DNA of 63,017 bases, filler included, from Hausera hauseri (lineage: Eukaryota): the NCBI GenBank assembly GCA_046269625.1. It is 13 parts of 13 records of this genome, joined end to end, with 100 filler letters (N's around TTAATTAATTAA, not from the genome) between each part and the next. Parts side by side here need not be neighbours in the genome. Positions count along the whole stretch, not along the records: positions 36,308 to 41,358 come from JBJURY010351046.1; 12 more parts are not named here. One strand, written 5' to 3'. The notes under the pieces were generated by a model. It saw only the letters and a list, made by a program, of their open reading frames with translations. It did not search any database and was not told the DNA's origin. Positions 3,690 to 58,806 of this stretch are shown here, piece by piece; positions within the stretch are counted from its first letter, which is position 1; every line of letters begins with the position of its first letter. The position numbers and the translations under genes were made by a program.

Positions 3690-3798
3690 TTGTCAATCAA
3701 TCGAAAATCGTGCGACGACGACATTTATTTATATTTGAAAAGCTAGCTGATCTACCACGTTTTTTCAAGTCACTACCAGCGAATTTCTTTTTGACCGA

Positions 3799-4053: not shown

Positions 4054-4054
4054 G

Positions 4055-4930: not shown

Positions 4931-5051
4931 GCCAATAGCGATCTCTATTCTTCATTAGAAACATCGTGGAAACTATTCCATTCTCCCGAACCGTCGAAAT
5001 TCAATATAGTAACCATTTCAAAGACAGAAATTTCTCATTATTTTCGTCACA

Positions 5052-18860: not shown

Positions 18861-18862
18861 AT
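18848..18862 (+). promoter_or_regulatory. Polypurine tract
   Basis: AAGGGTAGGGGAAA directly before the TG start of the putative LTR. Confidence 0.75.
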
Positions 18863-20206
18863 TGTGACCGAAATTGTGATCAAAACCGAAATCAAACTAC
18901 AACAAAACATAATCCGAAGCAGTATCCACTGAAATCCAAAGTTCATTTACAAGAGAAACCGTATAAACATGCCTTTTATGGAAAACTTATAAAAGAATTT
19001 CCGATAAGGGTTAAACTAATACCATATATAAACAGAATTGAAATAATACTCGCACAAAATGCAGAGAATCAAAGCATTTTTATAACATGTACAGTAACCC
19101 ACGAGAAAACCAGTTTTAAAACTCGCGAAACTTTTGTGGAAAATTAACCCCAGATAGGAATTATTTAGTAAACATAAAAACTCACGATAATTCTAAACTT
19201 TTAGCTATAAAAACTTTGACTACAGTTGATAGTTATAGGAATATAAGATACAATGAAGAAAATGAGAAATGGAAGAATACAACGCCGACCCCAATGAATA
19301 CAGAGATATATTTCACACAATATTGGTGGATATTTCTCATATTGTTTGTAATAGGAATTATCTCTATTCTTACCGCACTTACAAAGTAATTTCACTGTAA
19401 AAAGACACATAACCAATCTTATTATTCGATTCCTCAAAATAATAAAATCTATACGATAGCAGAATCACATTCTAGTAGAAAGGAATCAATTGAAATGCAA
19501 AACAACATAAACTCAATAATCGAACCAAATGAGAGAGCGCAGAGTATATTTTGTTTCACACAGATATTCATGATATGGATTGTAAAAAATATAGATCTGA
19601 GACTTCCATTGGCTTCAATCATCACCTCATGTGGACCAGTCATGATGTGTTATATAATTTATAAGTTAACGACCAATGAAATAAAAGTAACTAATTCAGT
19701 AAATTGGCCAATCAGATTTATGACTAAAATTAAGTATAAAAACCGGCTCAATATTCAAAAGGATGCCTATGAACTAAAAATGCAACCTGGTCAAGTACCA
19801 AGGAAACAATTTAGTCAAATATCTGATACGAAACCAAGAATACAAATTTATGCCAAACAAACAATCAGAGACCGAATTGGTAACAATAACTTCTCAAAAT
19901 GATGACAATCAAGACCAAGGAATACGAAGATTCAGCACTGCTCAACGTACAATGATATTCGCGTTCTACGATAAAATTATTGTTCATACAGACGGTTCCT
20001 GTGATCATATAAACCATGTAAAGAAAATACCAAATACTCTTAAATACGGCGAAATACGTAACCGAGAAATGTTTCTTTTTAAAGCATTAAATTCCGATAC
20101 AACAATCCGATTACCTAAGTGGACCGAAGGAAATACCGGAATGGTTATAAATGTCACAATAGGTAAACTAATGTTCATTTTTCTATGTGATTACAAACGG
20201 GTCACA
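18863..20206 (+). mobile_element. Putative 3' LTR (about 1.34 kb)
   Basis: Starts TGTGACC after the PPT and ends GGTCACA, a perfect 7-bp terminal inverted repeat. The right boundary rests on this repeat only. Confidence 0.65.
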
Positions 20207-20289
20207 ATATTTATGGAGAGATAATCACAGCTCAAGAGGAAAAACCTGTTCGTGTGAAGGAGCTGAGCACATATAAAGTTAAGTGTGAC

Positions 20290-21035
20290 ATTCTAATCAC
20301 AAGGCAACTGTTGAAAGAGGGAATATCAATGTTGCAATAGCAATTTTGTTGTTGTTGCAATGTTTAGATTCAACCAACAACAACACGCAACAGCTATAGA
20401 ATGGTTACTACTGGACAGACGTTAAAAACATTTCAACACTTCAATGATCACAGAAACATAATCAGTAATGACAAGATCGCCAAATCCTAGCTCTTTTAGC
20501 TTGGACCAGACAACTCCTGGAATGGCCGCTTCATCAAAGTAGACGGATTCAGTTCTCCGACCAGTTCTCCATTCATTGTTTGCCTGGGCGTGGTCTGCTG
20601 TATGGTCCTCAAGGACAATGCGTTGGGGGTAGTTGTGTACTACAGAGAGACAAGGTGAGAGAAGGCAGTGTTACATTCATATAGGGCCAGAACGAAACTC
20701 GTCATAATTGTAAACCTGTCGAGTTTACGATGCAGAGATGGCATCCCCACATAAGTTGTATCTAATTTCCAAATGGACCCGGCATGGCACTACAGTAAAA
20801 TAATGTTTGCGCACATGTGGAACTTTTGGTCAAGGACAACTTTCAATGCCAAGAGATTGGTGATTTCGGCCAAGTGTTTCTCCGGATCAGTCTCCAATCG
20901 AGCACGTGATGGACGAACTGGAGCATGCTTTGTGAAGAAGACAACATCCTCCTCAAAACCTGCACCTGTTTGAACAAACCTGTTTGAGCAAGATTTGCAA
21001 ATAGAATGGAATAACATGCTTGGACAATACATCAA
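20290..21035 (+). mobile_element. Tc1/mariner transposase remnant
   Basis: Frame-broken motifs AWTRQ..EW...QFSD, RTKLVII.NL and SPDQSPIEHVMDELEHAL*RRQHPPQNL, equivalent to the Tc1 SPDLSPIEHxWD motif. Confidence 0.8.
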
Positions 21036-21175
21036 ACCGATCTTTGTCTCCAAAGTAATGATAACCGATCAAGGTNNNNNNNNNNNNNNNNNNNNNNNNN
21101 NNNNNNNNNNNNNNNNNNNTTAATTAATTAANNNNNNNNNNNNNNNNNNNNNNNNNNNNNNNNNNNNNNNNNNNN

Positions 21176-24100
21176 AAACCTGCTGATCCAAGTGCGGATG
21201 AAAACGTCTGCGATGGTTTCTGTGTTGGTGCTCCGAAGCGGGACAGCCTCTGCCCATCGCGAGGAACGGTCCATCATTGTGAGGATGAACTGATGACCTT
21301 TTTCTAAGGGTAATGAACCTACAAGGTCAATGTGAACAGATTCGAAACGAGACGTGCAGGGAAATGAAATAGTGGTGTCTTTAGGTGCTAAGTAACTTTG
21401 TATTTTTGGCATGCCACACACTGCCTAACCCATGCCTGCACGTCAGAGTGCATCGACAGCCATATTACTTGGCGTTGTAAGAGTCGAAAAGTGGCCTTGA
21501 CACCGGGATGATGCACCGAATGGACGCTGTGGATTGCTTCTTTTATAAGCGACTCAGAAAGAATGATTTTGGGATTATTATGTTTGGAGGTGTCGAAAGC
21601 CACACCGTCGATGGTTTTGCAAGATTTAAAAGATTTAAGGATGTCAGGAGGTGGCTGGTTTTGCTGAAGTTTGTATTGAGGAAAAATTTGTGTAAAATCA
21701 ATCGAGCTGATTGATCTGGACAAAAGTCAGCTACTAAATTGTCGACTCCGTTTAGATGCTTAATTACAAAAGTAAACGTTGACAAATGCGATATTTGCCT
21801 CTCCTGGAGTGGAGAAGACGATTTCATGATGAGAATTTGAAGCAAGGGCTTGTGGTCCGTTTGTATGATAAAAGTTCGTGCAGTTAGCATATATTTGAAG
21901 TGTTTTACGGCAAGAATCATTGCAAGCAACTCTTGGTCAAAGGTGGAATATCTTTGTTCTTGTGCTGTGAATTTTCGAGGAAAGAATTCAAATGGTTTAC
22001 GGGATCCATTTTTAACTTGATGAAGGACAGCACCTGCAGCTGTTGTGGATGCGTCGGCGGTTAAGAAAAGTTCTGCATTGGAGTCTGGATAGGCCAGGAT
22101 TTCCACAGTTTTTAAATTGTCTTTGAGGCGATTGAAAGCATTGACTAGATTGGCGGTCCATTGAATAGCCTGCTTCTTCTTGCCGGAGCTTAGTGATGCA
22201 AATGGAGCGGTTAGAGTGGAGCAATGTGGAACGTATTTATGAATAAAGTGCAAGGTTCCAAGGAAAGAACGCATCTCTGTTGATGTACGTGGAAGTTGTA
22301 TGTTTTTGAGCTGAGTGATGCGGTCTGGCTGAGGTGAATGTCCGGAGGAGCTAATAACATGTCCTAGGAAGTTAACCTTATATTGAAAGAAAGAGCATTT
22401 GGAGAAATTGATTTGCAAGTTGTTTTAGTGCAGGCGTTGGAAGATCAAACGCAGGTATTTGGAGTGCTGCATTGAGGAAGATGATGCAATTAAAATGTTA
22501 TCAATATAGGGATAAGCGAAGGCTAAACCTGAAAAAACTGTATCGATATGCCTTTGGAAGGTCTGGGAAGCACTACAGAGTCCAAAATGCATAAAGAGGT
22601 ATTCGAAAAGACCGAAAGGCGTAATGACAGCCGTTTTCGGAATATCTGCTGGAGCCACCGGAATTTGGTGGTATGCTTTGTGTAGATCAATGCAGGAAAA
22701 GATGGTTGAACCATGGAGCCTGTGTAGAATATCGTTGATTAATGGTAGAAGGTAGGCATCCATTGTTGTTATGGTGTTAAGTTGGCGGTAATCACCGCAT
22801 GGCCGAAAAGTGCTATCTTTTTTGGAACCACATGCAGTGGTGAAAACCATGGAGATTTTGATCTTCTGATTATGCTTGATTTTTCAAGGTCAAGGAACTC
22901 AGCCTCCACTGCCTGTCTGCGTCGAGGCGATAGCGGACGGACCTTTTGACGTATTGGTCTTTGATATGCTGTTACTATGTTATGAAATGCGGATTGAGGT
23001 GATACAAATGATTTATTCTTTTGCAAGAGACGCGTGCAGGAAGACGAAATGTATTGTTGTAAATCAGAAGGCAAAGATGACAAATTATCCTATGGTGTCG
23101 ATGCATTGTGACTGGATGCAGTTGAGGTATGAGTTATAGGCGAGGTGTTGTGACTGGGTGGTATTTGGTGCAGGATGTTCGTGTTGAAGATGGTGTTGGC
23201 AGCTGTGTTATTAGTAATAGGTGTCACGCAGTTGGAAATATTGCATTTGTCACCGTAATAAAAATTTCTATATAATAAATGATTATAAAAATAATTCATA
23301 TCGGTAGTCGATTGCTTCAGTATCGACTTACTGGACACGATCGCCGGGGTGATCATCGAAATGCTGCTGATTTGATTAAGATTATCTCCGCTCTTTAAGG
23401 AACATTGTTTGCAATCTACAAGTAAATTGTAGTGGGAAAGAAAGTCTGAATCCAATATATGTGTTTGTACATTAGCTATTGTAAATTTCCATGTGAATGT
23501 GTTTGTGAAGTGTGGGAGAGTGAATGTTAATGTGGTGACTCCAAAAATTTGTAGGGGTTCACCGGACGCAGTGAATAATTGCTTTTGTTAAGTGTAATTG
23601 TGTTAAATGTGTTGTGTTGGTGGCAGTAAAGAGATTGCTGCGCCGGTGTCTATAAGAAAGTTTATTTTTTGTTTGTTGGAGTGATGACTGCTGCTTCTAA
23701 CGTGAATACAGAAAAAGAAATGTGCCGGCTATGTTTTTGCAGGTTGTTGCCTTTGCTAGGACTTGCCGTGTGTCCTAGTGGCGAAATTAGTGTTTTGGAG
23801 CTGGTGAGTTTGGCCTACTGTTTTGTGTGAGCTTATTAGTGTTGGTTTTATTGTGTGTGCTGTAGGTACAGCCAGATAGGCATTTTTGTGCTTTAGTGCC
23901 AAATTTTGAGTGGAAGATGCAAACGATATTGCTTGTATTGAAATTAGGGGAATGACATTTACAACGGATGCAGCATTTCTGAGTATTGTTGCCAAATTTT
24001 TTATGATAATAGCAAATTAATGACCGCGCGGGCGAAGGCGACCGTTTTTGACGTGGATTAAATACAGTAGGAGAAGAAGCTCTAGAAAAACCCCGTCGAG

Positions 24101-25210
24101 GTAATGTTAATGCGTTTAGTTTGTCGTTAATGTTGTTGATTGTCTTTTGCAATGTTTCATTTTCTGTGCGTAATTGCGCAATTTGTTGCTGCAGCATTGC
24201 ATTTTGTTGTTGTTGGTCGGTTTTTAATGCTGCAAAAATAATTGGTGCTGCGTATGAATGCAGTACTTCGTATGCCTTGTCTGCCAGTTTGGCTAGCTTG
24301 TTAAGAGCCGTTGAGTCTTCAATCACAATTAACAAGGCTCTTATTTGAAGGGACAATGCATTTAAGAAGTAGCGGCGAAGAAGCTCGGGGCTGTGTTCAG
24401 AGGTTACGCCAAAGTTGTTGAGGTTAGACAAGAATGTGCGTAGGAATTCAGAAGGCTTCTGAAGGCCCATGGCGTTGTCGTTAAAGAACCTTTAAATTAT
24501 TGAATCGATTGAAGGCTCAGTAAGGTTGAGGACGGCATTATAGAGTTGTGTATATAGGTCAGCATGCTGAAGGATATCAATTATATTGGTGATTTTAGTT
24601 TTGATGGAGGCTGGTAAGTGGAAAAAGAGTCTATTGGCTTTGGATAAAGAGTTGACGACGTTTTGCTATTAAAGCCAAAATTGGTGCAGTTTTAGCCACG
24701 TTTGAGTAGAGTTTTGGCTATCGAGAAAGTATTCGGTGCAAGGTGAATGAGTGAGGAGGGTATGTTGTGTAGGGATGTTGGAAGCGCTGTGTTTGGGTAA
24801 GTGAATAATTGGAATTTGTTGTTTAGTGAGTTTGTCCATGGTGTCAGTTGTGGGTTACGAATCCATGCCACCACGGATACGGAAATAAATGGTGAGACAG
24901 ATATGGGTTGAAAAAGATTGTAGAGTTCCGGCGAGGGGTACTAGTTATCCGTTGTGTGTAAGGTAGAAATCAGAAGAGTGGAGTAGGGTGGAAATAAAAG
25001 TGTGAATGGTCGCAGTGTGAAAATGCAATGCTGTGTGTGTTAATGTGTTTGTTGTTGAGCAAAAAGAAAAAGAAATAAGAGTTGGTGTGCCCGGGGGCGT
25101 GTCGTGGTGCTAAAGCAAAAAGCGCCGTCTGACCTACTGGCGCAGGGTGGGCGGCCGGGACCTCAGCCTCGCCGCGACGGGTCCCAAATTTTGGTGTGAC
25201 CGATCTCTTA
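21176..25210 (-). mobile_element. Ty3/Gypsy LTR retrotransposon, CsRn1-like: gag-PR-RT-RH-IN, frameshifted
   Basis: Gag 23787-24900 (KPSEFLR...LLRRYFLNAL; two CxxHx9Cx3C-type knuckles); protease FLIDTGAAISLLP near 23640; RT RPCGDYRQLN...PYIDNIL; RNase H LTADAS...TDHKPL; integrase HSVHHPG...CVACQ...VHIDLVG. Confidence 0.93.
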
Positions 25211-25652
25211 CCTGTTATACTATAGAGCACGTTCAAAACCGGAAAAAAGTGTTTCAGGATCATTTTTGGCGCTAAAACTTTAGGTAGATTGTGTATACCA
25301 TGGAGACAAATCATCCTGCGGAGGTAATTGTAACTTCGTGACATATCAACTAAAATTCGCAAGTTATTAGCGGAATTTATGACAGGTTTGTAATTAGGAT
25401 TACTTACATGCTGCGATATCAGGGGGTTCCGCTGTCAATGTCTGATGGTCAGATGGCTGATTTGTCAGCGGTGACAAGTACAATCGACGGAAACGTCAGA
25501 AGCTCTCCAGTTGTTAGGAATGGTCGAATCTTCTTTATGCTAATCCCTTGTTTAACTCGAGAACTGAGCATCATGAGGCAAATATGGACCATATGTTTAA
25601 ATGATTGAGTGTTTGTTAATGGTAAAAATATTTTGGAGACATTTAGAATATC

Positions 25653-25832
25653 CTACTCTAAAATTGGTCCTGGACAGTTTGGAATTACAATGCATAGATT
25701 AGCATTTTCTGTGACAAAATGACGGCTCATTTTAGATGAACATATAGAACCAAGTGTGCATAATGCCAGACTGACAATATACTGATTACTATGATTAAAA
25801 TCATCCTTGAGAGAATTAGGAACAAGTACATG
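25653..25832 (-). pseudogene. AP1G1: Fragment of AP-1 adaptor complex gamma subunit (gamma-adaptin N-terminal region), degraded
   Basis: HVLVPNSLKDDFNHSNQYIVSLALCTLGSICSSKMSR resembles the conserved gamma-adaptin segment (NxxKNDLNHSxQ(F/Y)xxGLALCTLG...SxEMxRD). Confidence 0.7.
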
Positions 25833-25879
25833 AGAGTAGGGGAAAAAAGAGTGTTCTGGGCCAAGTGGGGGAGTCCGCC

Positions 25880-26154
25880 CACGCATCACGTGATCCGCCC
25901 ACGCGTCACGTGATTGGTCAAGTGATCCGCCTACACGTCACGTAATATCCGCCCACGCGGCACGTGATTGGTCACGCGATGCGTGCGAAAAGTCACCAGA
26001 CATTTGTTATTCTCACGCGACATTGTCCATTATCACGTGACATTGTCTAGACTCACACGTGACATTGTCTAGACTCACACGTGACATTGTTTAGACTCAC
26101 ACGTGACATTGTCTAGACTCACGTGACATTGTCTAGACTCACTTTACATTGTCT
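25880..26154. repeat. CACGTG-rich short repeats and 22-bp tandem repeat (GTGACATTGTCTAGACTCACAC), possibly a subterminal region of a DNA element
   Basis: CCGCCCACGCGTCACGTGAT-like units about 4 times, then about 5 copies of the 22/20-bp unit running into the gap. Confidence 0.8.
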
Positions 26155-27739: not shown

Positions 27740-30330
27740 TTACTGAAGTATGGCAAAGGAAGTTGGGCCGCACATTAGCTTCTTGAATTTCCCATTTTGT
27801 GTCTTTTTGTTGTCTGTTTCATGCCTTGTGTGAACTGAAGCCTTATATTCCATATCCACTTCCAATATGTAACCCGTTTCTCCATTGGGATCCAGGTCTT
27901 GTATTCTGATGTCTTCAGGATGCTCCACTCATTTGAAATTATCATATGACAATGGAACGCTCATTGCCCAGCCATACACGTTGTTGGCATCCAAGTATGT
28001 TATATATTTGGATGGCTTTTATGGTTCATAATCTGCCATATATTTGTTGTTGGCCTCACTATATCTGAGAATGACTTGAAAGATTTCACCCCGTATTTCT
28101 TTTTCGATCATCAGGCTGATGTTTTAATCTTTCAAGACCTGGAGTCGAACACCTGTATATTCCTGGAGCTGTGAAAAAATGAGCTTGATCCAACTTGTGG
28201 CTCTGAAGCATCACTTCTCTGAAACTCTTGAATACGTCTGTTAGCGGCAGCACATCCGTTTGGAGATATGTCACTATAATCTCCGGTTGTCCTGCATTGG
28301 AATGTCTTCCAGATCTTTTGTTCATGCTTATAATCAGCATCACTAATATGTGTCTGACAGCTTGCCATAAAAATCCTCCTTGTATAGTAATGATATTTCA
28401 TCCAGCGATCCCCATGGTGTTATGTAATAATAAATGAAAACTCCTTTTATTTGACCAAGTCAAATGTACCTGGAAAGAACTTCTTTGTTTTCTTTAGTTC
28501 ATCTGATGGAAAATTCTTTACGAGGCTATCAAAAGATGAACTCATTAAACGAAACTGTTAATGAATCGGAGTATTATGTTTCCCGCATGCTTGGTGAATG
28601 TGACATATTTCTCCTTATTGTTTGAGATGACATCAATATTCCTATAGATATTGCCAAGTTCTATGACTTTGATGTGGAAATCGTTGCCACTGAGACAGTG
28701 GAAGATGAAGGGCACAAATGTTGCAGTCCTAAAGCATAAATTGCATGAATTGAATGCTACACCTCTATATTTACCTGTTACATGGCAGTCATCATGAGAC
28801 TTGTAGTTTTCCATTGTAAATGGTTTGAAACACATGTAACATGTTGTTGCACTTCTCCATTCACCTTTTCCTTTTGATGATATCACCATACTTTTAGGCT
28901 TCATTTTTTCGATCTTATGTGCCGATTCTTCCAGTCTCTCCAAAAAATGATGTGCTGCATTTGAATTCATAAATAAATATGGAACCTCGTCCATTCGCTT
29001 TGCGTACATGCAAAAGGATTACGGCTAATTACGTTTGTATGCTGTCGTATTTTTTTGTTGAGGATTTGGACTGCAACGATGAATTGGATTAAGGATAGCC
29101 TAAAAGTCACAATATTCGACAATTGGCACTTTATGAATTTTCTCATATTCTTTGAATTTAATATAATCTTTTTTGTAGAATTTCGTTCTGATGCAATGAT
29201 TGCTGTTGCAATACATTTTTTGTTCTTCAAGCCTCTGCACAGCCAGATTACCGCTGTAGTAGGATAAGCATCGTTTGCAGATTTCAGTTTTGGTAGTATG
29301 CTTTGTTATTTGGGATCTCATTAGACTTTCAAAGTTTTTTGTCCAAACAAAATGTCTCTTTTCACCATCGTCTAGCAGGAGCAGATCCCTATGATCACCT
29401 AATTCCACTTTTCACACTTTTATAGGATACAATTTATTCGTTTTTTCCACTCCAAAGATATTCATGGACATCTGGTTCACTTGTTCAAATCTTTCGATTC
29501 ATGTTTTGTAATTAAAATCGTAATTATGTTGAATATCTTGATATATTGAAACACGTGAAGCATGCTTTTGATCCTTTATGACTGCGAATTTTGAAAGAAT
29601 AAATATTTGAAGCATATGTTTTTGTCATTTTGAACATTGACACATGCCTCTTTCAGTGCAATCCATTTCAAAAGCTTTATATAATAGCTTCCTCGCATCG
29701 GGGAGAACTTGTGCACATGCACAATCAATTTATTCATTTGTGCAAGAGTCCAGCCGCTCTACTTATTCTGGCTTTCATCAGCTTCACGTATTAGTTTTGC
29801 ATGTTCCTCATGCAAACATTCTGATATATTGTTGGCTTCTAATATTGGCATGTTCTTCGTTTTGAAAGCCCTATTTGATTCTTCGTCATCAACATTAGTA
29901 AATATGGACTCTAATATTAGATTGGCTTTGACTGCTTTAAGCTCAATCAAGTTATCGTGTAGAAATCTAGCAGTTTCAATCTTTGATTAATCCAGAAAAT
30001 CATGAAGTGTAGTTCGCCCTGTTGCAACTATGACATATCGTCTCACTTTTGTTTTGAATACATGATTCTCTGGATTTCGGAACCTTTGCCATTTTGATGA
30101 AGCAATGGGATTGTTTGTGATCCATTTTAATCCCGTGTGAACAACTGGTGCTGAGGTTGTTACAGGATTTGATACATGTTGAGAAATTATATCAGTATGT
30201 TCATTAAAAATCATCTTCTTTGACTTGGATGTGAAACCATACAAATGAGCTTTATGATCATCACAAAACTGCTGCTAATCTGATCTGCTCACAATTTCAC
30301 ATCTTGGACAGTCTGTGGAATCTGTATTCA
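27740..30330 (-). pseudogene. Protein-primed family B DNA polymerase of a Maverick/Polinton, disrupted and 3'-truncated
   Basis: Motifs in order: KANLILES..AFKTKN; CKRCLSY; EYCDF (Exo I); DDCHVTGKYRGVAFNSCNL; FHCLSGNDFH; LRFINS; YLQTDVLPLTDVFKSFR; ANNKYM; YLDANNVYGWAMS (Pol motif A); GYILEVDMEY. Confidence 0.9.
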
Positions 30331-31430: not shown

Positions 31431-32659
31431 CTATGTACCTTCTCCCCACTAACCTCTTCGAGTCGATATTATTCGAAAACCACTCGATCTATTTAAATTC
31501 TAATTGCACACTTGTATAGTGTACCGTTTTTCTAATGGGTTGCACCCGGTGCCATGTGCTAATCATAAATATTGAAATTGTTGAAAAACCTATATTGATT
31601 TGAGCCCATTTGCACATGTGCACCTTCACTGTACTGTGCGCAAAACGATGTGCACTAATGTGTACTACAGATTGGCACTTAGCCCTATCGATTAGATCAA
31701 TACTGCACTGTGCAACGATCAATATGTGCAAAGTGCAAAAGTGTCATGGCAACTGTGCATAAAGGCACGTCGCCATTCACGTGCCGATCGNNNNNNNNNN
31801 NNNNNNNNNNNNNNNNNNNNNNNNNNNNNNNNNNTTAATTAATTAANNNNNNNNNNNNNNNNNNNNNNNNNNNNNNNNNNNNNNNNNNNNGACGACGAAC
31901 TTATACTTACACAGGTTGTGATCCAATATCCCGAAACTACATTATTACCAATCGAAAATCCAATGATTATTCCGGAAATGAATATTCCCCCAGGTTCCAT
32001 AGTATACGGCAAACCCCCCAAATGAACCCAAACTACAAATGACTGATTCAGCACCTAATGAAGTATGGAATGCCTTATGAAAATATGATTCACTACCATT
32101 AAATAGACGAGTAGAATGCGTACCATTACTCCTGCCACTAACAAAGGACGACGTATTCTGCTTTTCAACAGCAAGAAAGTTACTTAAAACTCTTGTAAGA
32201 GAATTAAGAAGAAAACATAGGCGAAAACAACCATATATATTAAGTAGAGATTAAAACCAATAAGCGGGAAAAAGTAATCAAAGTAACAGCAGGAATGTTC
32301 ATTAAATTTACGGATCTCAAAAGAAAAGTATTAGATGAATTAGATCTAGATTACGGACTCCTTACCGGAAAGATTCATCAGATTACTATGGAATTTGGCA
32401 CTAAGAAAAAAGAAGGAAGACCAAGAAAGTGTGATTTTAACCCAATAAACGATGATGAAGAAAATCCCAAAGAAGAAAAATCAGAAAGGCAAAGAAAGAA
32501 AAGATCTTTGTTGAGAAAACGTAGGGAACAACGAGAAATGTTAGAAGATATATTATACGACAATTTCCAGAAATTTACTATTAGTAATGATGAAAATAAA
32601 CAAACAAAAATCCTGTTACGGGAACTTCGGATCAAAGTGAAACAGATGTACCAAAGGTA

Positions 32660-33050
32660 ATATTGACAACTGATAAACTCCTAGAACAATTAATTAAGAA
32701 AACTAATCGAAATCTACTCAAGAAGATACCAACAATTACAATAATTCCATTACAATCCATAAGAGAAACTGCGAGAAATTTCTAATCGCAAATTACGAGA
32801 TTGCTACAGAAGTATAAGCTGAAAAGAGGTTTAAATAAAGCATTGACACGATTATTAAAGGAATGTGATCAAAACCGATTGTTAATGGCACCAAGATGCA
32901 TAGTGGTTAGCTTCAAAAACCAAACAGAGATCGATGCCAAGTTACTCCATATAGTAAGAGATTTAGTCCATCATATGCATAAGTCAACAAAAGAATGGGT
33001 AACCAAACAAGGAGGTTGGGATGAAATACTCAAGAAATTTAACCCCACTA
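32660..33050 (+). pseudogene. Bcl-2-like domain upstream of Env in a Gypsy-type element (degenerate copy)
   Basis: BH2-like HMHKSTKEWVTKQGGWDEILKKFNP (W...GGW at 32996-33019); BH3-like LQSIRETARNF; in frame with the signal sequence and AYDC. Confidence 0.7.
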
Positions 33051-33069
33051 CATTAATATACCACAAATA

Positions 33070-36000
33070 TACGAATATCTCAGATTGGGTAGTACAAATT
33101 ATTCACCTGCTACTATACTTGATAGCTGTGAGTATTCTGAAAACCACAAAAGCGTTAGAAGCCTATGATTGTTCCAAACCGGAAATAACAGCCCGGCTTT
33201 CACTAGTGGATGTAGGCAAATGTTAAAACGCGAATCCGATATCTGTAAAGAAAGAAGGTCCTTACTATTACAGCCTGTATCAAAGAATCAGTTATCAACA
33301 AATGCCAGTAAAGGAATGTCAACTTAATAAAGTAGTATTCGCTCATAACTGAGGCCATAATTCATGGAATTCAGAAATTATTTTACCAGTGCTACCTAAG
33401 CCCGTGACAATAACAGTTGAAAATTGTCGAAAAGCCACTGATTCAATTCATGTAGGCCTCCAACAGCCAGTACAGGCAGGCATAGGAAAACTAGTTTATT
33501 CACGTATAGTTACAGCAGGACAAATATGGCCCGGATATGGTGGAGCTTGTAAAGGAGAAAGTATGACGATAAATAGACAGAAAGAATCCGCTGCAGTACA
33601 AATAGAAGATTTTACCGTCACCATAAAGGAATATGAAGTAAATTTCGATGCAATCACAGGAAAAATGTTAACTGCACCATCCTGTACATATTCCGATGGA
33701 GTAAGTACCTTAGGAGAATCCACCCTAGTTTGGGAAAAACGGTCGTAATATGTCCATTAGCTTTCCTTAAACAAGTATCTATGTACGAAATACAAGGTGA
33801 TTTATATTACGAAGATGAATACCAAGAACTTGTACATAACCATAATATAAGTTTACCTACCCCACGAACATTAAAACACACCATTTCCCTAAAAGTTTTA
33901 ATGTCATCCAGTGACAAAGATGGAATCGTATTGGCACGTAAAGGAGCCGTATCTACCTGTGGATCAAATGCAGTTTACTCCACATCATACGAGGATCTAT
34001 TCGTAATCAACATAACTATTGCAAATGCAGGAAAGCTACCAACCGAAGATATAAAGTAATACCTATATACGAATAACAAGATAGATTATATATCATATCG
34101 AATTGTACAATATTATGGCATTGAGAGATTGTAAAATCACTCAAAAACTGAATCAGCATGACTTGATACTAGCTAGGGAATTCCCAGAAGATATTGCCTT
34201 AATTATGGGATATCGCTCGGAACATTTGGTAGAGTACAAGGTGAAATACTCCGCGTGTATCAATGCCCTCCAATAGAGGTAACTCCAATAACAACCCTAA
34301 AAGAAAATTGTACAAATGAATTAATGGTTCATTATAACGATAAAAACATAATTAAAACCGGATACGTGGACCCTGTTACTCGAAAGTTATTGTTACCTGT
34401 GGTGCCGCGGACTCGAGCGTCACCACGGTCGAACTGCATCGGGACAGCATCGTTCGAAAGAATTTTGATGGTTTTACGGAGATTTGCTCAAAAAATGTGT
34501 CCAACCTACTCCAAAATTCTTTCAATACAAAAATTCTCGATGAAATTCGTTGTTTCAAATCAAGCTGCCTGTGATTTGAGCCGTGTCGTGTGCATATCAA
34601 ACCATCAGTCAATTTTAAAAATACAAAGACGTGTACTACTCAACTAGCTGCACCATTAACACAATTTGAAAGAAATGTTCGGTAATATCCGACAAATTAC
34701 CGCAACTCGTTGACCACTTCTGGCAGTTTGTTTAATCATGGTATCAGACACAATGATATTTGACCTATTAATCGATTTTGATAGTCGAGACACCAAAACC
34801 TTAATGGTGGTGAATCATTTATAATTAAATTCTAATCCTGCAATAATGCCTTTTTGAAAAATTTAGAGTTTGATATGATAAATTTTAAAACTTTTTACAG
34901 TTGTGCTAAATAATTCGAATTAAAAAATATTGTTGGATAAAAAGAGAAGAAAAATTTCAAGAATCGAAACTAAATACGAAGCCATTCAAAAATCAGCAGT
35001 GGTAAAGCCACGTAGAAACAGATTGGCGGTGGATTTCGAAAAATTTACAGGAAAGCCTTTATATTTTATCCACATTGATTTCAAGATTTCTCTACCTATA
35101 ATTAAGTGGCTAATGATCAGAAAATAGAGCAGTTCAATTTGAATTGAACCTAGACTGAGTCACTCAACGAAACGTGTTTTACCATTTTTAAATTCCGCGT
35201 AACTTCCATTTACAATCTTATGACTATGATTTATCTGTAAGTGAATATGGGATTCAAATTTCTTTGGTGTGAACAGTTGTCTCAATTTATATATAATTAC
35301 AGTAAAATCGGATCTTCAACAACTGCAATGTTTATTTAAACTAGTTTTCAATGAACAAGAGAGACACGTCCAACGAATTTTAAACTTGACAACAGGAAAA
35401 ATTACGAATTTGAAAAAAAAATTTCTGAAACCAAAAGCCATGAAAAGTAATTTTTGGTAAGGTCTACGCCGACAGGACCAATGAAGGTAAAACATTACTT
35501 TTTTGAATACAGAGTAATATTGTTTTTTACATGGAATTAAAATGCAGAGAAATCAACAAAATAGAAATTGATAATTAATAATTACAGTTGTTGGTTGATA
35601 CAGTTTGAATAAATGATTGTTGACAGGTTTTCTGATTTTGTTGCTTGCTGGATTAATTTGTACAATTTGGATTTACATTACCTACTGAAATCAGTATTGC
35701 ACCATGTTATAAAGACTTCTATCCAGCCTTCAAGCTTAACAATGGATGATTGACCAAGACACGCCAACCAACCATGATGAACATCCCACAGACGATTAAA
35801 TTATTATCGTTGGATAAAGGTATGCAATTTAAAGTAAATATAGAACTTCCCACCAGTGGATTATATTTCTTGAAAGACCTGAAAGCAGTAAGAAAACAGG
35901 TATTATTTCAGAATGTCCGAAAAAAAGTTATCACAGAATTTGTATATACTGTTACAAAAGGATCAAATTGTGTACCTAATTATGGAATATTACTGCCAAT

Positions 36001-36207
36001 CGACCACTTAGAGAAAACAGCTGAAAAGGTCCTTTTTGACTTCTAAAATAGATTCCTTATTTTTGGTCAAGTTATATATGGAGTCTTCGGTATATCTGTT
36101 ATAATTACTACCGTAATGGTCATATTAAGACAAATAGGAGCTGCAAGAAATATAAAGAAAGTACGTGGTTGTACATGGTAAATTATGCTGGGATGCTTTC
36201 CTTCAAT
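33070..36207 (+). pseudogene. Chuvirus-like envelope glycoprotein, disrupted and split by a solo LTR
   Basis: Signal-like WVVQIIHLLLYLIAVSILKTTKA then LEAYDCSKP..LSLVDVGKC; G.CKG; CTNELMV..YVDPVTRKL; C-terminal RFLIFGQVIYGVFGISVIITTVMVIL..GCTW. Collinear with the intact copy at 59326-61170. Confidence 0.85.
34398..35677. mobile_element. Solo LTR-like insertion (1,280 bp) with 5-bp TSD TTACC
   Basis: Ends TGT...ACA; TTACC at 34393-34397 and 35678-35682; removing it restores Env as ...VTRKLLLPTEISIAPC. Confidence 0.85.
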
Positions 36208-36307: not shown

Positions 36308-39300
36308 GTAATAGAACAATCCACACCGACGATATTAATATCAGACATGCACGGGTTAAAATGTATTAGAAAGGATATGTCATCACGCTGCGATGTAGTT
36401 ATGTATACCACTAACTACGAAGCATTCTTTGTAGCAGAAACAGAAATCGATATGAAAACGTACGATTTAAAAACACAAGATGTGCGGATCGAGGATTACC
36501 TCGAAAACCGAGACGATTATTTATATTACAAAGGGCAGATCGGAATAGCGGAAATATACTACAAAATGATAAAAAATGACTGCAGATTATATACTGAAGT
36601 CATGAGAACCAAACTGGCTTTAATTTACACCAATCCAGAATTGGCATCACCGATTATACCAATGAAAGACGGTGTTTTCCGACAGGTTACCGGAGAAGTC
36701 CTATTAACCTAAGAATGCGAAATAAAAGACGTGCCGATCAACGTAGACGAAAAGAGATGTATGCAAGAATTGCCGGTCAATTACGAGAATATGCCAAGGC
36801 TAGCAGTGCTACTCACCAGAGTATTACTGGAAAATTCGACTGAACCGACAATACTGAAGCAATGCAAGACGAGTCTGGGGGAACCAATATTTAGACGCAG
36901 TGGAGCCGACTGGATAAGCCTATTAAATAGAGGTACGGCTGCAGCCCCTAGTAATCTAACGGCGACAAATCTAATGAAAGGATTATCGGATGATAAATTC
37001 GAATATACAACTAATAAAGGAATTTATAGGCCAAAAGACATAAAAACTTTTAGGCAATTTTTAGCATTTTCGCGACTGCGGACGTATGAACTGAATCGGG
37101 CCATGTCAATGGTCATGGATGACACCCGCTTTCAAGCGAAATGGGAATCGTTACTTGGTGCTAATCACTATCAAACATTTGAGGAAGATTTCTGATTTTC
37201 AAACAAGCCACATCTGGATTCTTAGCCATCTAGTTTTTAGTCCAGCCATCATCAACGGCTATGAAATATTCACATTAACATGATTTTCCTGAAAAATTTT
37301 AACTGCAATTATATCACCCTTCAGGAAAATGCTAAAGGTCTATGAGGAAAATCGATGGAAAAATGACGTAAAACGCCATGTGGGGTACTATAATTGCAAA
37401 CGACGAGGAAAGCCCTCGATTTTGTATAGACGTAAAAATAAGAAAACAGTAATACGAAAGGATGATTCAGATGATGACGTGCCTAAGGGAGTAGAAGTGA
37501 GTTTCAGAATGAAGATGAACAAGATATACTCAATGTTTATCTCGCCATTACCCATCATGCCACCAACAGCACCGATATATGAAGACGGCGACTACAAATA
37601 AATCGTATCATGTAAGTCCAAAATCTATCAAAAGCCCATTAATTATGAAGATTCTTATGAAAAAACAAAACAATACGGAGTACTACGGAAAATGAATGTT
37701 ATCAACCGAAGACGAACAGAAAACGATCACGAAATATTGTACTTAAAAAGGATACCACGTCACATAGAATCGAAATCAGCGATCTTGAAAAACCCGAAAC
37801 TGTTTGATCTCGGATTCACTACCTTAGGAACTGCTCATTGACAGTCGCGTCAGTGAGATAGCAAATAATTTATACCCGAACGGAGAATTAAGACAGTTAA
37901 GAGAAAATATCCTCTCAGCACCATAAATAACAATAAATGGACACAGAGTCTCTATTATGAAACAGTCAAAGATAGCTACGGAACAGTAGCAGAAGGGAGA
38001 CCTTTCGCGAAAATACACATCAAAGATTAAAAAGTGTAATCATTAATTGACAGAGGATTATAGAAGTCTTTTATAAAATACGAATCAATACCAACCACAT
38101 TGCGAGAACAATTATGCCCACCGCTATCGTTGGATCTTGGTAGCATAGAAGCATTTGGACAAATATAGAAGTCAAAATTTAAATGGACTCCCACTGTTAT
38201 TATGATGAGTCAAGCACTTCAACATGAATTTGCGATAATGGGCCAGTTAACAGATGATGTAGTGCTAGGTTGTTATATATTGAAACAGATACCAGGCATA
38301 GCAATCGATATGCATAACGGAAACCTAATTAAGCTCGAACGAATGAAAAGAAAAAACGTAATAAAGGAAAGGAAATCGGGCGAAGTATGGATTCCGGTAG
38401 ATAAAGACATTCCTCTCAGAATCGAAATGATAATCATCGCAAAAATTCGATAGGACAAAAATCTGTCGGTATACTTCGAGCCTCAAGAGAATATCGATCC
38501 AAACTTTATCTTTAGCAATATTCTATGTAGAGTAGTGACGGGACGAATACCAATCAGATTAGTGAATAATGCACCAATTTCCGTAAGATTGTATGCTAAC
38601 ACTACTCTGGGTCATACTCACAGAGCATCGGCGGTAACAGTAGAGGAAAAACTATACAAATGTGCTGAATTTCCACCTCACGTTGAAACCAAATTTTTTC
38701 CTGAGGCGTATGGAAAGTTCTACGAATTACTATGTAAATACCGTTTAATAATCGCACAAAATGAGGAAAACATAGGCAGAGCAAAACCTTGATATTAACA
38801 ATCTCATTAAGAGAAAACCCGGTTCGAGTGATGAAATTGGTTTAGAAGAACAGAAAATGCCCAAATGTTACCCACCTCCCCATTCATTAAGACCATAAAT
38901 AACTAAAGAGGTAGAGCGAATGTTAAAGTCCGATATAATTTGACCAAGTTACTGATCATGGTACTTACCTATTCTTATGATTAAAAAGAAAGGAACTACA
39001 AAACATCGATTTTGTATAGACTATCGGGCATTAAACACGATGATAATGAAAGACTCGTTTCCATTACCGTCAGTAAAGAAAGCTTTAGATAGACTATCAG
39101 GAGCAAAATGGTTTACCACTCTCGATTTACAATCGGGATACTGGCAAGTGGAAATCAAAGAATAAGATCGATATAAGATAGCATTTAAAACACACGATGG
39201 CGTATATGAATTTAATGTTATGCCCTTCGGCATCACCACCGGATAAGCTATTTTTACTAGAATGATATATAAAATACTTATGGGATTTGAGCATGACTTC

Positions 39301-41358
39301 ACATACCTAGATGACGTAATAATAGCATCAAAAACAGATGAAGAGCACTTAAAGGACATTGAAGATACACTCATGCAATTGGAACAAGCACGGGGCACAG
39401 ATGGGCACAGAACGCAGTGTCATACCTCGGACACATAGTTGGAGAAGGAGGATCAAAACCGGATAAATCCCTGCTAAATAAAATATCTGATTGTATGGAA
39501 CCACAGAATCAAAAAGAATTAAGACATTGGTTAGGACTATGTGTGTTTTATGCCACTTACGTGCCGGACAATTCAAAAATTAATGCGCCACTATATTGTC
39601 TACTCAAAAGAGAAACTAAATGGAGATGGATGGAAGTGGAACAAAAAACATTCAACGAAATGAAGAAAATTTTGACAAGCGAACCAGTTTTAAGATACCC
39701 TGATTTTAACCTACAATTCATCATTAAAACAGATGCAAGTAAAGAAGGTATAGGATACGAATTAGCTCAGAAACGAGAAGGCGAAGAACTAGAACATCCA
39801 GTAGCCTATGGAGGAAGCTCGTTAACAAAAGCAGAAAAAAATTACTTGGTTACCGAATTAGAAACGTTAGCCGTAAAGGAAGCACTATGACACTTTAATG
39901 TCTATGTCTATAAACAAAAGATTATAATAGTGACCGACCACAAAGCAGTTACGACATTGAAAGGACGAGCTAATAATCCAACATGTAAATTAAACCGTTG
40001 GATCGAGGAAATTTCACGATATAATATCGAATTCCAATATAAACCGGGTAACAAACACGTCGACGCCGACGCACTATCAAGGTTAAGGACAAAAACGAGT
40101 GCGATCACCATAATAAAAAACCCACAACTCGAACAAATAATTGAACAAAGAACTCTAATACTAGATAAATTACAGCAGAACAAGCTAATGTTATTCAGCA
40201 AATTATCGAGTTTGTACAAAATGACAAAATGCCAAAAGGACGACAATTGAAAAAGCATCTATAGAAACACGGACATAAATATCATGCATCGAACCAAGAT
40301 AATATCCTATATTTGCGAGCGAAAAGGAAGAAGACTAATAGTTATTCCCAATGGATTGTTCATCGAAGTACTCATGGCCGAACATGACTCATATTTAGTC
40401 GGACATATGTCTTGGAAGAAGACATTGGAAAGGATATTAAATAAATACTACTGGCCAAGTATCTATATTGATGTAAAGAAATGAGTAGGAGCGTGCAAAG
40501 TTTGCGCGACAAAACAGAAGAAAACAAAAGAGTACGTGGCAGAACTAAAACCCAAAAACGTACCAGATAGGCCCATGCAAGCCATGTCTATGGATAATGT
40601 AGAAACCTTGCCGAAAACTCACAAAAATAACAGATATATCCCAACATGCGTGGATCGACTAACGCACTTCGTTGAATTGGTGGCACTATTAGATCAAAAG
40701 GTAGAAACTTTAGCCAACGCAGTGGTAAGGAAAATTATCTCCAGATACGAACCACCAAAACAAATCCTAACGGATAGAGGAAGGAACTTCACAAGTAAAT
40801 TATTCGAAAAAATAAATAAGATATTTGAAATTGAACGATTAACCACAACCGTGAACCACCCCCTATGTAATGGAATGGTCGAGCGAATGAACAAAACAGT
40901 CATTCGTATACTATGAACAGTAGTAGCCAAAAATCAGAAGGATTGGGACGAATTCCTAGAAGGGACACAGTTCGCAATTAATACAATCCCACATCCAGCA
41001 ACAGGCTTTACACCGTTCTTTATGATGTACGGGCGAGAGGCAATCTTATCCACTGATCTAGGCGTGACACAGTAAAAAAGTAACCTCGCCGATCTACAGC
41101 AAAATTTTGCCGAAGTCTTACAGACAAGATTGCAAAAGTGTTGCAAAGTTGCATAAATATTATCACTCAAATACCAGGAACAATTTAAAAAACAATATGA
41201 TAAAAAGACTAAACCCCACAATCTGGAAAAGGGAAATTTGGTTTATATACATTACCCAGTCGCGAAAAAAGGTACGTCTTTGAAATTAACACGTGCTGGA
41301 AGAGGACCATATGAAATCATCCGCACAAGGCCAAGCACGGTCTATATTAATAAAAACG
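36308..41358 (+). mobile_element. Gypsy-type element with order Env(C-half)-PTAP linker-PR-RT-RNase H-IN, degenerate
   Basis: Env: YLENRDDYL..NDCRLYTEVMRTKLALIYTNP..QVTGEVL..CMQELPV..GIY; PTAP at 37563-37574; decayed protease (VVLGCYIL); RT RFCIDYRALN..LDLQSGYWQ..YLDD at 39304; RNase H IKTDAS..TDHKAV; integrase EHDSYLVGH..LTDRG..NGMVERMN..GPY. Confidence 0.92.
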
Positions 41359-52590: not shown

Positions 52591-54789
52591 CTTGTTTCAT
52601 TGTTCCAGCATTTGTCTAAGTATAAATATCTAGTCCATGCATAACTTACAATTTCTCAGGTTTGTGTGTTCTTTCTAAAGCGCATTCTCCACTCTCTGAT
52701 AACTGAGAGCTGAATTTGCGAACTCTATTGGGAATAGTGTCACTAAATACTTTACTAGTGAGAACAGCCCATCATATCAACAGATCTATTTTCCTGCGTA
52801 TTATAAAGATGTTCTTGTTCTTGTTTGATCTCCACATCGTCAGCTCTTCTGGATGAGCCCTTATAAGGGCTGTAGTCCTAGGAAGGACTCTGGAGTAGTT
52901 GCGCTGAGCATTCCTGCAGTCCCAGTGGTGTCTAGGAGGGTGGTCCGAGGTTTCTCAGGCTTTAGTGCAATGCTTGACCTCCTAGAAGTGATCCATTTCA
53001 ACCGGGGACCATGACGATAATCCCAACGTTGGCCAGAATTTCTTGTTTCCAGGACGCACTGCGTGGAAGTATTGAGAGGTCTTGGCCAGTAATGGTCCTT
53101 ACCCTGGCTAGATCGCGGATCGATCTCAGTCTTAGCGTCCCATTATAAAGATGTGTCCTGTTTTCCACTATTGCTACCTTTGTTCTTGCTTCATTCATTG
53201 CTTCTTGTCTGCGATAGTATTTTCTGTTCTTCTGCTACTTCTTTTATCTCTGAGGATACTTACGATTGTGGTATGTTTAGTAAAGTATAGACGTATTCTT
53301 CATTTACATAAGTTTTTCTTTCACTTCACTCGTTGTATGACCATTCTGAATTGTAAGTGATCCTTCGTTCTTAATGACACATTTTCCTCCCATCATGTTT
53401 ATAATTTCATAAAGTATTTTCATGTTGGTGTTGTATGCTGCTGTCTCTGCCTCTTCTGCTAATGTATCATTTACTGTCGTTTATCCGAATAGCATATTTT
53501 CTTTATTTCTTATTTGTGTATTTTTGTATGATGTGTTTTTCATTGGGTCTTCTGTTTTCCTATCACGAGAACACGTAATCCAGTAGACCTTCTGGTTTGT
53601 TCCATCTGTAACCACTCTGTTTTGGTCACTAAAGTGAATACACTTTTTTCCGTTTACATCACCTATACTTTCACTGTCCATTTTGTCCTCACTGTGGTCC
53701 TTGTTCTCCACACAATGAGACATCTTGTTTGAAGGCTGCATCCACTACTTCCTGCACACGCTCGGATCATCTTTCTTGCGAGTCTTCCTCTTCATTTTCT
53801 GCTGGTTCATTGCATGCTATTATAGCTAGCTTATCACGTGCTGAGTTGAACTTCCTACATATAAATGCTTTTTTTTTTTAATAAGTGATCCCCTCTATAT
53901 GAGTTTCAAAAACAGCTTGAACAGTACCCGATCTTGGGAACTTCTTGCATTCTTACAAGGTCCAATTGTATCCGTTCATTTCTAAATCTAATGCAGTTAG
54001 TTTTTCTGCTTGAATTTGTGTCCCAATATTCCAACTTCCAACTTGTAAGAATGTTTATGTGATACTGCATTATGTATAGTATCAATTACTTTGTTGTTAC
54101 AGTGGGTTCCCACTGTCGAGTTTTTGACTCCCTGGTCCTGACTTTCACAAGCGCCGTTCATACAATCAATTCATTTTCATCAACATTTATGGAATTTATC
54201 TCAGCGGACTCTGTAGCGGTTTGATTTATTACATACAGTTTGCTATACGGTCTATTAGTCCCCAGTTACAGCACGATAATGGAAATGCAGTGTACACATT
54301 TTTTTCCCGTTCCTAGAGTGCGTAATGAAAATTAATTAATGATAATAAAAATAACCATAACAGGATATTATCATTGCTGTTGTTCGTGGTGGTGGTAGTG
54401 TTGGCGTTTATGTTAATATTTATAATAAATATTCCGGCCGNNNNNNNNNNNNNNNNNNNNNNNNNNNNNNNNNNNNNNNNNNNNTTAATTAATTAANNNN
54501 NNNNNNNNNNNNNNNNNNNNNNNNNNNNNNNNNNNNNNNNCAACATTGGAACAATAGTTCCTCTTTCAGAGCCTCGCGTGAAAGATTGTGCTTCATGACT
54601 TTATCCAGAAGTTTCTCAATTGCCTCGAAGTAAGCCGCCGGTTCTGCTCCATTCATTTAGCATTTGAGTGCTTTTTTCAGATTTTCGCACAGCGTTGAGG
54701 ATCGGGCGAAAGCCTTCCGTAGTCTCTTTTGATATCCCGTTATTTTCGCATCTACTATCTCGTATCTTTCTTGTGCTTCTTTCGCCAAG

Positions 54790-57620
54790 AGACATTTGGC
54801 GAAATTTATCTGCAGGTTATGCTGGTGTAAGCGTTGAAAGATTGATATGATGTGTTCTTTGTGTTGTTTGGTTGAGAAAGAAACAATTAATATGTCGTCG
54901 ATATAGGGATGAGCATATGATAAATGGGAAAGGATAGTATCGATGTGGCGTTGAAAAGTCTGCTTAGCATTCCGTAAGCCAAAAGGCATGTACAGATATT
55001 CGTATAAGCCAAAAGGAGTAGTGACGGCTGTTTTTCTATATCCTCGGGTGCCACAGGAATTTGATGGTAGACTTTGGATAAATCAATAATAGAATAAATT
55101 GCAGTTGAGTGCAGACGGTGTAAGATATCCTTAATAAGTGGCAACGGGTATGCATCCATTATTGTCAAAGTGTTCAACTGACGATAATCACCACATGGTC
55201 GAATTGTTCCGTTCTTCTTTTTCACGACATGTAGTGGTGACGACCATTGGTATTTGGAGCGATGTACAATTCCGGAACGTTCTAGTTCTAGAAATTTGGC
55301 TTCAGCTGCCTGTCTACGACGAGGAGATAAAGGACGCACCTTTTGGCGGATAGGTCGTTCATATTGTGTCACAATGTGGTGAAAAGTGGTTTTTTCTGGT
55401 GCAAAAGACCTATCTTTTTGAATAATTCTAGAACAAGATACGCGAATAAATTGCTGCAAACTTGAAAGTGATTGTGAAAATTTTGGTTGTAGCGAGGAGG
55501 TCTTACGGGTAACTTTAGATGTATCAGTAACAGTAGCAATTCGGACGTTATTTGGTGATCGAGAATGAAGTGGTATTCGATACAGGATGGTAGTATTAAA
55601 GATGGTATTGTAGTTTGTAGTTTTATCGAAGGATTTGGCAGTGGTAACAGAATTACTTTCATTGCTGTGTAAATCCCAATCGCCAATAACATTGTTCTTT
55701 AATGATTTTATAAAACAAGGTGCCATGGTTGTAAAAAAAGGTTTGTTTAACGGGTTTTTTAATATCGGCTTTTGAGCTGCATTCACCCGTACGACAGCCG
55801 AACTTGTATCGTCGTGATCGAATCGCTCCTTATTGCGACCACTTGTTAAGCAGCGCTGTTTACAATCGACATAGAGGTTATAGTGCAAAAGAAAATCGGA
55901 TCCTAAAATGACTGTTTGGATATTGGCTACGGTAAATGTCCAGTGGAAAGTTTGAATAAATTTCGGAAGAATAAAAGAAAGCCTACATGTACCGGAAACA
56001 TGTAGTGGTTGTGCGGAAGCTGTAAATAAAGGTTTAATTTTGGATGAAGTGTGTTGAGTTACAAAGGTAAGCGGTAGTAAAAAAATCGCTGCGCCTAAAT
56101 CGATAAAAAAATTTATGTGTTGAGGTGTCGGTACGATGATGGAGACTTTTAATGTGAACACGGCGAAAGAAATTTTTCGGCTATTAGGAAGTAAAGAATG
56201 GCCTTCGCCAGTTCTCACCGAAAACTCTGGCAGTGAAGTTAGTTTTTTGAAAACGGGAAACCTGAGCGACTGCTAGAAACGAAAGTTGTGAGTTCGTCAT
56301 TTGCATGGTAGGATTTGTTTTTAAACGTGCAACCTGGGATACATTTGTGTTCATTATGTCTGAATTTTGCATGATATATGCAAATTATGTTATGAGTGTA
56401 GATTAGATAAATAATAGCTACACCCTAAACAGCATTTATTTGCTTTGTTGTTAAATTTGTTGCGATAATAACATACGAATGACCGTGTTGAAAACGATGT
56501 CCGATTTCTGGAAAAAGAACGTGTTTAATAAGGCGAGAGAGCATTCTGTCGATGTAAAGAAAAGTCATTCATTTTATCATTGATGATGTTGATTGTGTGT
56601 TAGAGTGCCGCATTTTTGGCGTGTAATTAGTTCAAATGGTGTTCGATGGATGTATGACGTTGATTGTCATCAATCGTAATAGCGGCTGATATGATGGGTT
56701 GTGATTGAATTTGTAAGACTTCGCATGCTTTATCTGCCAATTCACCCAATTTATCTAAGGCTGTAGAATTTTCAACAACGGTAAGTAAAGCCCTAATTTG
56801 AATGGGTAAGGCATTAAGGAAATATCGTCGAAGTAGATCCGGATTGTGTTCCTTGGTGGTGCCTACAGTACGTAAGTGAGCTAACGAGGTGCGTAGAAAA
56901 TCACTAGGTTTTTGTGTCCCCGTTGCGTTTTCGTGAAAGAAGCGTTGAATTATAGAGTAAATTGGTGGTTCTATCAGTTTTAACACAGCATCGAACAATT
57001 GGGTATAAGGGTCAGGGTGTTGAAAAATGTTCAGTAAGTTGTGGATTGAGGCCTTTATGGAATTTGGTACAAGGTACATTAGATTATGGGCTTTGGATAA
57101 CGAGTCTGAAATACCGTTGGACTGTAACCAGAGTTGATGGAAGTGGAGCCAAATTTTGCTAGACTTTTCATTATCTATAAAGTATTCAGTGCAGTGTGGG
57201 GTAGTATTGATAGTATTTTTGTGAGAAGAATTTGTATTGGTTAAAGTAGGTGGATGACTTGAATTGGGGTAGTACAGAATGGATTTCGATTTTGTGGTCA
57301 GCTTATCGGTGATGTCACTGGTTGATGGAGAAATCGTCCCGCCGCGGATTCTAGGATTGATATGTATACACAGATAGTTATGTGAGGCCGTGTGGGAAGT
57401 CGACTAACATGAAACCGTTGTGAGTCAAAAAGAAATCGCTGTAGGCGGAGGTATTATAAATGATAGCGTATAGTGATGTTTCGATACGTTGTCTGACATG
57501 TACTATTTGTATTAGATTATTATTAACATAAAGGTAGAGGGGAAATGATGGTAATGTACTTTAAACCGGGTAGTGTGATATATCATTTGAAGTTAAAAGA
57601 GTTGCTTTAGACGTTTCTTT
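54790..57620 (-). mobile_element. Ty3/Gypsy CsRn1-like element: gag-PR-RT, truncated after RT
   Basis: Gag GTQKPSDFLR..LLRRYFLNALP; FFIDLGAAIFLLP..ILGSDFL; RPCGDYRQLN..IDLSKVYHQIP..MPFGLRNA..PYIDDIL. Clear nucleotide homology to 6825-9171. Confidence 0.92.
56239..56248 (-). promoter_or_regulatory. -1 frameshift slippery site A AAA AAC plus gag stop
   Basis: The pol ORF (54887-56218) lies in the -1 frame relative to the TAA at 56241-56239. Confidence 0.75.
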
Positions 57621-57796
57621 TAAATATGTCCGATCTGCTGACTCACTATGGTTTATGGATCTGTAGCCGATGAATATTAAAAAAAACGACAATAACTAGA
57701 AGGGGACGGATTCTGTCCATAGTCAGAAGCTCTAGTCAGGTACACGCTGTAATCAGAAGAATAAATCGGGCCCACTTTGCTATAATGCGCCTTGAT

Positions 57797-58700: not shown

Positions 58701-58806
58701 GTCANNNNNNNNNNNNNNNNNNNNNNNNNNNNNNNNNNNNNNNNNNNNTTAATTAATTAANNNNNNNNNNNNNNNNNNNNNNNNNNNNNNNNNNNNNNNN
58801 NNNNGA

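Follow-up and report, generated by a model that had tools for sequence, protein, structure and literature searches.

A decayed Ty3/gypsy retroelement of Hausera hauseri with Env directly before protease, most likely of Burro-like Gag-Env-Pol type

The window that we analysed, a stretch of 63,017 nucleotides from Hausera hauseri (GCA_046269625.1), comprises 13 contigs with N-linkers between them. The element under study fills one of these contigs entirely (36308-41358; JBJURY010351046.1). Pfam and tblastn give its gene order on the plus strand as the C-terminal half of Env, protease (PR), reverse transcriptase (RT), RNase H (RH) and GPY-type integrase (IN). The Env ectodomain (36308-37200; Pfam, tblastn and alignment), inside which the contig starts, is of the mononegavirus/gB fusion glycoprotein type: PF24664 matches at 36308-36709 (E 3e-8) and 36713-37192 (E 1e-4), and there is an in-frame stop at 36710. 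No solved structure matched this Env by sequence. A decayed membrane-proximal and transmembrane region follows, with two frame changes and several stops (37168-37330; tblastn, alignment), and then an Env tail or linker in the protease frame (37293-37997), which contains a PTAP motif at 37563-37574 and three stops at 37839-37866. The aspartic protease (37998-38303; local protease HMM, E 7e-11, and tblastn) is also decayed, with four stops and its active-site motif, D-R-G, placed at 38043. A conserved segment that intervenes between protease and RT (38364-38783; tblastn) leads to the RT itself (38869-39700; tblastn and motifs), which has YLDD at 39304 and is interrupted by stops and, near 39395, by a frame change. 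RNase H lies at 39702-40022 (PF17917/PF17919). The integrase (40340-41358; Pfam, tree alignment and motifs) displays GPY at 41304 in addition to HHCC (40383-40505) and an acidic triad (40590/40770/40878), and the contig stops here, before the element does. The Pfam extents are 39363-40247 for RNase H and 40485-40913 for the integrase core, and those from tblastn are 36377-37257 (Env), 37998-38672 (protease), 38905-39384 (RT) and 39402-41351 (RNase H-integrase).

Ty3/gypsy elements (Metaviridae) are marked by YxDD in RT and by HHCC, DD(35)E and GPY/F in integrase; all of these are present in the contig, together with the PR-RT-RH-IN order of pol. The contig begins inside Env and ends inside integrase, with Gag, the LTRs and any Bcl-2-like domain outside it. 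About 25 stops and about four frame changes interrupt the element in total: 14 stops and two frame changes along the path 36377-38658, as read from a frameshift-aware alignment to P0001 (the stop-free frame of the window's last contig), then five stops in the tblastn match to RT, six in that to RNase H-integrase, and two further frame changes. This copy is dead.

We find that the linker between Env and protease is coding. Across 37293-37836 the protease frame has one stop in 181 codons where the other two have 13 and 16, an openness matched by none of 5,000 shuffles; only the ~30 bases of the stop cluster at 37839-37866 look non-coding, and the reading frame is identical on either side of them. 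The alignment to P0001 follows a single collinear path from Env through the anchor and tail to beyond the protease (36377-38658), and there are no long repeats within the contig. Since the linker codes in the protease frame, there is no room in it for an LTR. A sequence-only reading of this DNA had placed the C-terminal half of a glycoprotein of the same family directly 5' of a decayed protease, RT, RNase H and GPY integrase, and Pfam, tblastn and motifs confirm it: both peptides that it quoted are present, one at 36581, the second within the open frame of P0001 (58807-63015). It had also proposed aligning the last contig's protein to this contig, which yields the one path described above through Env, anchor, tail and protease, and had named an LTR or target-site duplication between 37600 and 37950 as the sign of two nested elements; neither was found by alignment, frame openness or repeat search. 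We rejected the idea that the linker retains traces of another protease in tandem, since the score was 1.3 and 300 shuffles reached as much as 8.7. In run X1, 14,387 Logan contigs match the element, of which 783 are at least 99% identical and 6,709 are 90-95% identical; they cover 30 of 30 bins, including the linker, several of them skip parts of 37743-37925, and none spans Env to pol as a single read or contig. No RNA record carried the element among the matches listed.

The downstream half of the element groups with relatives in which Env precedes Pol. In an 80-row tree of RNase H-integrase it is sister to eight rows (SH-like 97), the same eight that are the top blastp matches of this region; six of these carry an upstream Env in frame, and the other two records lack Env. 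P0004 and P0008, which have no Env in their records, are left out of the Env-first count. A 23-row integrase tree, with one of the 22 chosen database rows dropped, groups the element with the same relatives (UFboot 86). A quick RT tree places it in a 21-row group without a resolved position, it is a long branch in every tree, and with RNase H alone the Env-first relatives rank 18th to 89th. As for congruence of the RT and Env trees, which the sequence-only reading had suggested checking, it holds among the relatives: P0124 and P0133 group in all trees (support 100, 78 and 100 for Env, RT and RNase H-integrase), as do P0134, L001 and L002 (91, 93 and 100). It is not seen for the element itself, the long branch of which attaches differently in the Env and RNase H-integrase trees, a conflict that weakens when more rows are added to the Env tree. 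P0028, which gave no long match, is outside the Env trees, and P0122 is without RT.

Several relatives are intact. P0123, P0124, P0134 and L002 (metagenome records) run from Gag to integrase with Env in one frame; P0133 and L001 hold Env-Pol in one frame that starts at or just before Env, downstream of Gag, and continues to integrase; P0122 extends from Gag through to two proteases. Gag is upstream of Env in P0122, P0123, P0124, P0134, P0136 and L002. Tandem protease domains, two each, occur in P0122, P0134, P0004, L001 and L002, and those of L001 are separated by a stretch that contains hydrophobic segments. Neither viral_contigs nor the first metagenome scan contained a relative.

Env and pol belong to one element because the linker is coding and because the RNase H-integrase groups with intact, single-frame relatives in which Env is before Pol. 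An improbable variant accepts a single element and holds that Env and Pol were not in one polyprotein but in separate frames, with a stop or frameshift near 37840-37870 as the join: it could draw on the stop cluster at 37839-37866, on the length of the linker (235 codons versus 95-187 in eight intact relatives) and on the fact that we found no close intact relative of this lineage, but the cluster leaves the frame unchanged, stop density is comparable elsewhere in this decayed element, and every intact relative reads through. We give hardly any credence to an origin of Env and pol from two nested elements or a chimeric assembly; the assembly is indeed fragmented, rich in repeats and without a record that spans the junction, some Logan contigs do skip sequence there and the three stops are bunched, but the non-coding look is limited to ~30 bases, the pol groups with Env-first elements, intact relatives show the identical order in one frame, and PTAP in this linker and PSAP in P0001 lie about equally far from the membrane anchor. 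The earlier judgement that misassembly or nesting is unlikely is thus upheld by the coding linker, the absence of an LTR or target-site duplication, and the grouping with Env-first relatives. The Env-PR-RT-RH-IN order is real, as Pfam, tblastn, the coding linker and the intact relatives attest; in this copy the shared frame of linker and protease is interrupted by decay, whereas intact relatives keep Env and pol in one frame. We conclude with high confidence that 36308-41358 represents the central part of a single decayed Ty3/gypsy retroelement with Env directly before PR-RT-RH-IN, most likely a Burro-like Gag-Env-Pol element.

Other contigs of the window hold further elements of this kind. 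The sister element P0001 (58807-63015, plus strand, open at both ends) encodes, in a stop-free frame, a Bcl-2-like domain (58843-59250), a signal anchor, Env, a tail with PSAP, protease and partial RT. It shares with 36308-41358 30% identity in Env and 47% in RT, and blastn found no DNA match between this contig and the last one (58805-63017). Given these values, the two are separate lineages, and 36308-41358 does not, as had been proposed, complete the last contig's element at its 3' end; nor is P0001, a distant relative that is open at both ends, the 'intact copy' that it had been taken for. A third Env-bearing element, unnoticed earlier, sits on the neighbouring contig 31891-36207: it is decayed (32660-36205, plus strand; tblastn), with a Bcl-2-like domain (32660-33052), a signal anchor, and an Env that is broken by ~1.25 kb of non-coding DNA (~34452-35700); P0135 is a stop-free close relative, ~70% identical. 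An RNase H-integrase element at 16059-19147 (plus strand; tblastn and integrase tree) has an integrase that is sister to that of 36308-41358 (UFboot 99); in 16059-21075, a hydrophobic stretch lies beyond the integrase, and then a further frame of 310 codons without a Pfam family. This one genome therefore contains at least three divergent Env-first lineages, with Env identities of 23-30%, a diversity in line with an old diversification.

The window has other contents too. Three decayed members of another gypsy family, 65-76% alike in DNA, occupy 4931-9171, 21176-26154 and 54541-58704, and Env was not detected in them. A tandem array at 9272-15958 has a unit of ~30 bases and strong CpG depletion (observed/expected 0.15-0.24), and its frames score as pentapeptide repeats. 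On the minus strand, two fragments at 3078-4384 and 28545-29018 have a likeness, judged by eye, to Polinton/Maverick capsid and polymerase-region genes; Endonuclease_7, at 28545-29018, was the sole Pfam result for these fragments.

The domain that lies before Env in the two sister contigs (P0001 and 31891-36207) is, on weak sequence support, Bcl-2-like. In both contigs a W-x4-GGW motif precedes mature Env by 50-60 residues, and in eight elements altogether (these two and six database relatives) a domain with weak Bcl-2-like matches stands immediately before Env; motif and domain are missing in P0122, P0123 and P0124. Bcl-2-like cargo is described for Burro in the part of PMC6431247 drawn on here, and we have rejected it as a new feature. 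PF00452 matches five of the eight domains (best E 2e-5), the matches of known score being under the Pfam curated cut-off; in P0001 (Pfam Bcl-2, E 0.0018) the BH2-type W-x4-GGW is present and the canonical BH1 motif NWGR is absent. A profile built from four such domains retrieved four proteins among 1.84 billion, three of which have PF24664 immediately behind the domain; we discarded the fourth, the repeat protein P0138, as false. When a profile of all eight was run against the PDB, 58 of 60 among the matches listed were Bcl-2/Bcl-xL (best natural E 8e-4), and a designed repeat protein ranked ahead of them. AlphaFold models of two of the domains were poor (pLDDT 43 and 42), and a Foldseek search with them, including the viral library, yielded nothing at E<=0.001; against the PDB, Bcl-2 family members were the top nine and 36 of 41 among the matches listed, none at E<=0.001. 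In VIA, with a poor model as query, Bcl-xL was 12th among tied helical bundles. The N-terminal domain alone had no match among proteins of similar length and none in Atlas.

P(T/S)AP, PPxY and YPx(1/3)L are the three classical late domains that recruit ESCRT. Late-domain-like motifs of any type are found in eight of nine Env-protease linkers, against a shuffle mean of 1.0: P(T/S)AP in three of nine (shuffle mean 0.04), PPxY in four (0.4) and YPx(1/3)L in five (0.6), counts for which the motifs were picked after two had already been seen, in elements that are related by descent. The PTAP of 36308-41358 and the PSAP in the tail of P0001 are among these motifs. An alternative role has to be considered for the tyrosine motifs, which can also act in sorting when in glycoprotein tails. 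The main text of PMC13524379 and section 7 of PMC6431247 do not report late-domain motifs in Env-protease linkers; Sacco 2022, Grohme 2018 or their supplements may do so. By hydropathy, mature Env is preceded by a hydrophobic segment and followed by one to three in all eight intact relatives examined. In P0123, P0124, P0133, P0134, L001 and L002 a second protein with a signal peptide is fused behind integrase; the sections of PMC13524379 and PMC6431247 used here make no mention of it, and Sacco 2022 or Grohme 2018 may have it. This post-integrase protein has a membrane anchor in P0123, P0134 and L002; its P0124 and P0133 versions are Ig-like.

The known system that most resembles our element is Burro/GYPSM1, for which Grohme et al. 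2018 is reportedly the primary paper. In the sections of PMC6431247 consulted, these giant gypsy-like LTR retrotransposons of planarians encode Gag, Ubi/SUMO-like, BCL2-like, Env, PR, RT, RH and IN in one frame; they exceed 30 kb, carry BIR, MATH and ankyrin cargo, have polyproteins of 4,873-5,140 aa, and include decayed copies with stops and frameshifts. The parallels are several: an Env with mononegavirus fusion glycoprotein matches, in frame between Gag and protease, as in our intact relatives; a BCL2-like domain just before Env, as, weakly, in the two sister contigs; ubiquitin/SUMO-like domains upstream of Env, as in P0136 and L002; and a conserved segment between PR and RT, for which 38364-38783 is the counterpart here, at the position of the dUTPase-like domain in Burro (PMC6431247, in part). 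On the other hand, our full-length relatives are shorter (2,694-3,735 aa) and have no Pfam matches to BIR, MATH or ankyrin. The element in 36308-41358 works like, and probably is, a Burro-like element, a likeness that we base on described architecture and not on sequence.

A second comparison is with the GAG-ENV-POL errantiviruses, which have an HSV/gB-type Env and are found in three phyla, Nematoda, Bryozoa and Platyhelminthes (PMC13524379, in part). Their gene order and Env class are those of 36308-41358, in which we find the defining pair of features: Env directly upstream of protease in one element, and an Env of the mononegavirus/gB class (PF24664). Judged by eye, the Platyhelminthes_C1a Env rows (Smed_errantivirus_1-6) in that source resemble P0001 and the first residues of 36308-41358 in motif order and cysteine spacing, a likeness that makes a flatworm the probable host. 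The Bryozoa row looks far more distant. The elements in that source are intact and our copy is decayed. Non-canonical nematode ERVs have Env and Pol in flipped order (Sacco et al. 2022, as cited in the part of PMC13524379 used), and mosquito BEL/Pao elements carry a chuvirus-like glycoprotein (PMC7642597, in part): here too an LTR element has acquired a glycoprotein of related class, but the element is of a different superfamily. The implied novelty of the Env-PR-RT-RH-IN order does not stand: it is already published, in one frame (PMC6431247 and PMC13524379, both in part), and intact relatives show it better. Our contig is one further dead example of a published architecture and not a new kind.

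Hydropathy, and the analogy of viral polyproteins that thread through membranes, which is the precedent behind the topology that we propose, lead us to infer a single polyprotein in the ancestor of 36308-41358. An internal signal anchor would direct Env into the ER lumen, where signal peptidase would release its N-terminus, and the C-terminal anchor of Env would return the chain to the cytosol, where Gag and cargo would also lie. Pol would then be tethered to the Env tail until released by the protease, and its packaging would need no gag-pol frameshift; the late-domain-like motifs of the tail would recruit ESCRT for budding. In the sister elements, the Bcl-2-like domain would be membrane-tethered on the Gag side, and would probably modulate apoptosis. 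We offer, tentatively and as a possibility that we rate well short of even, a wider model for Env-first gypsy elements: budding signals reside in the Env tail, where motifs swap among lineages as they do in retroviral Gag; enveloped particles bud through ESCRT from one membrane-threaded polyprotein, with Env and not Gag driving scission; and the post-integrase protein of several relatives is a separate attachment protein.

The locus by itself, a single dead copy of a known architecture, has little weight; the useful yield is a testable assembly model for the Gag-Env-Pol polyprotein. Should the late-domain motifs of the Env tail prove functional, they would account for the budding of a Gag-Env-Pol polyprotein, and this bears on a question that PMC6431247 raises in the part drawn on here, namely that of Burro-like elements as infectious proviruses.
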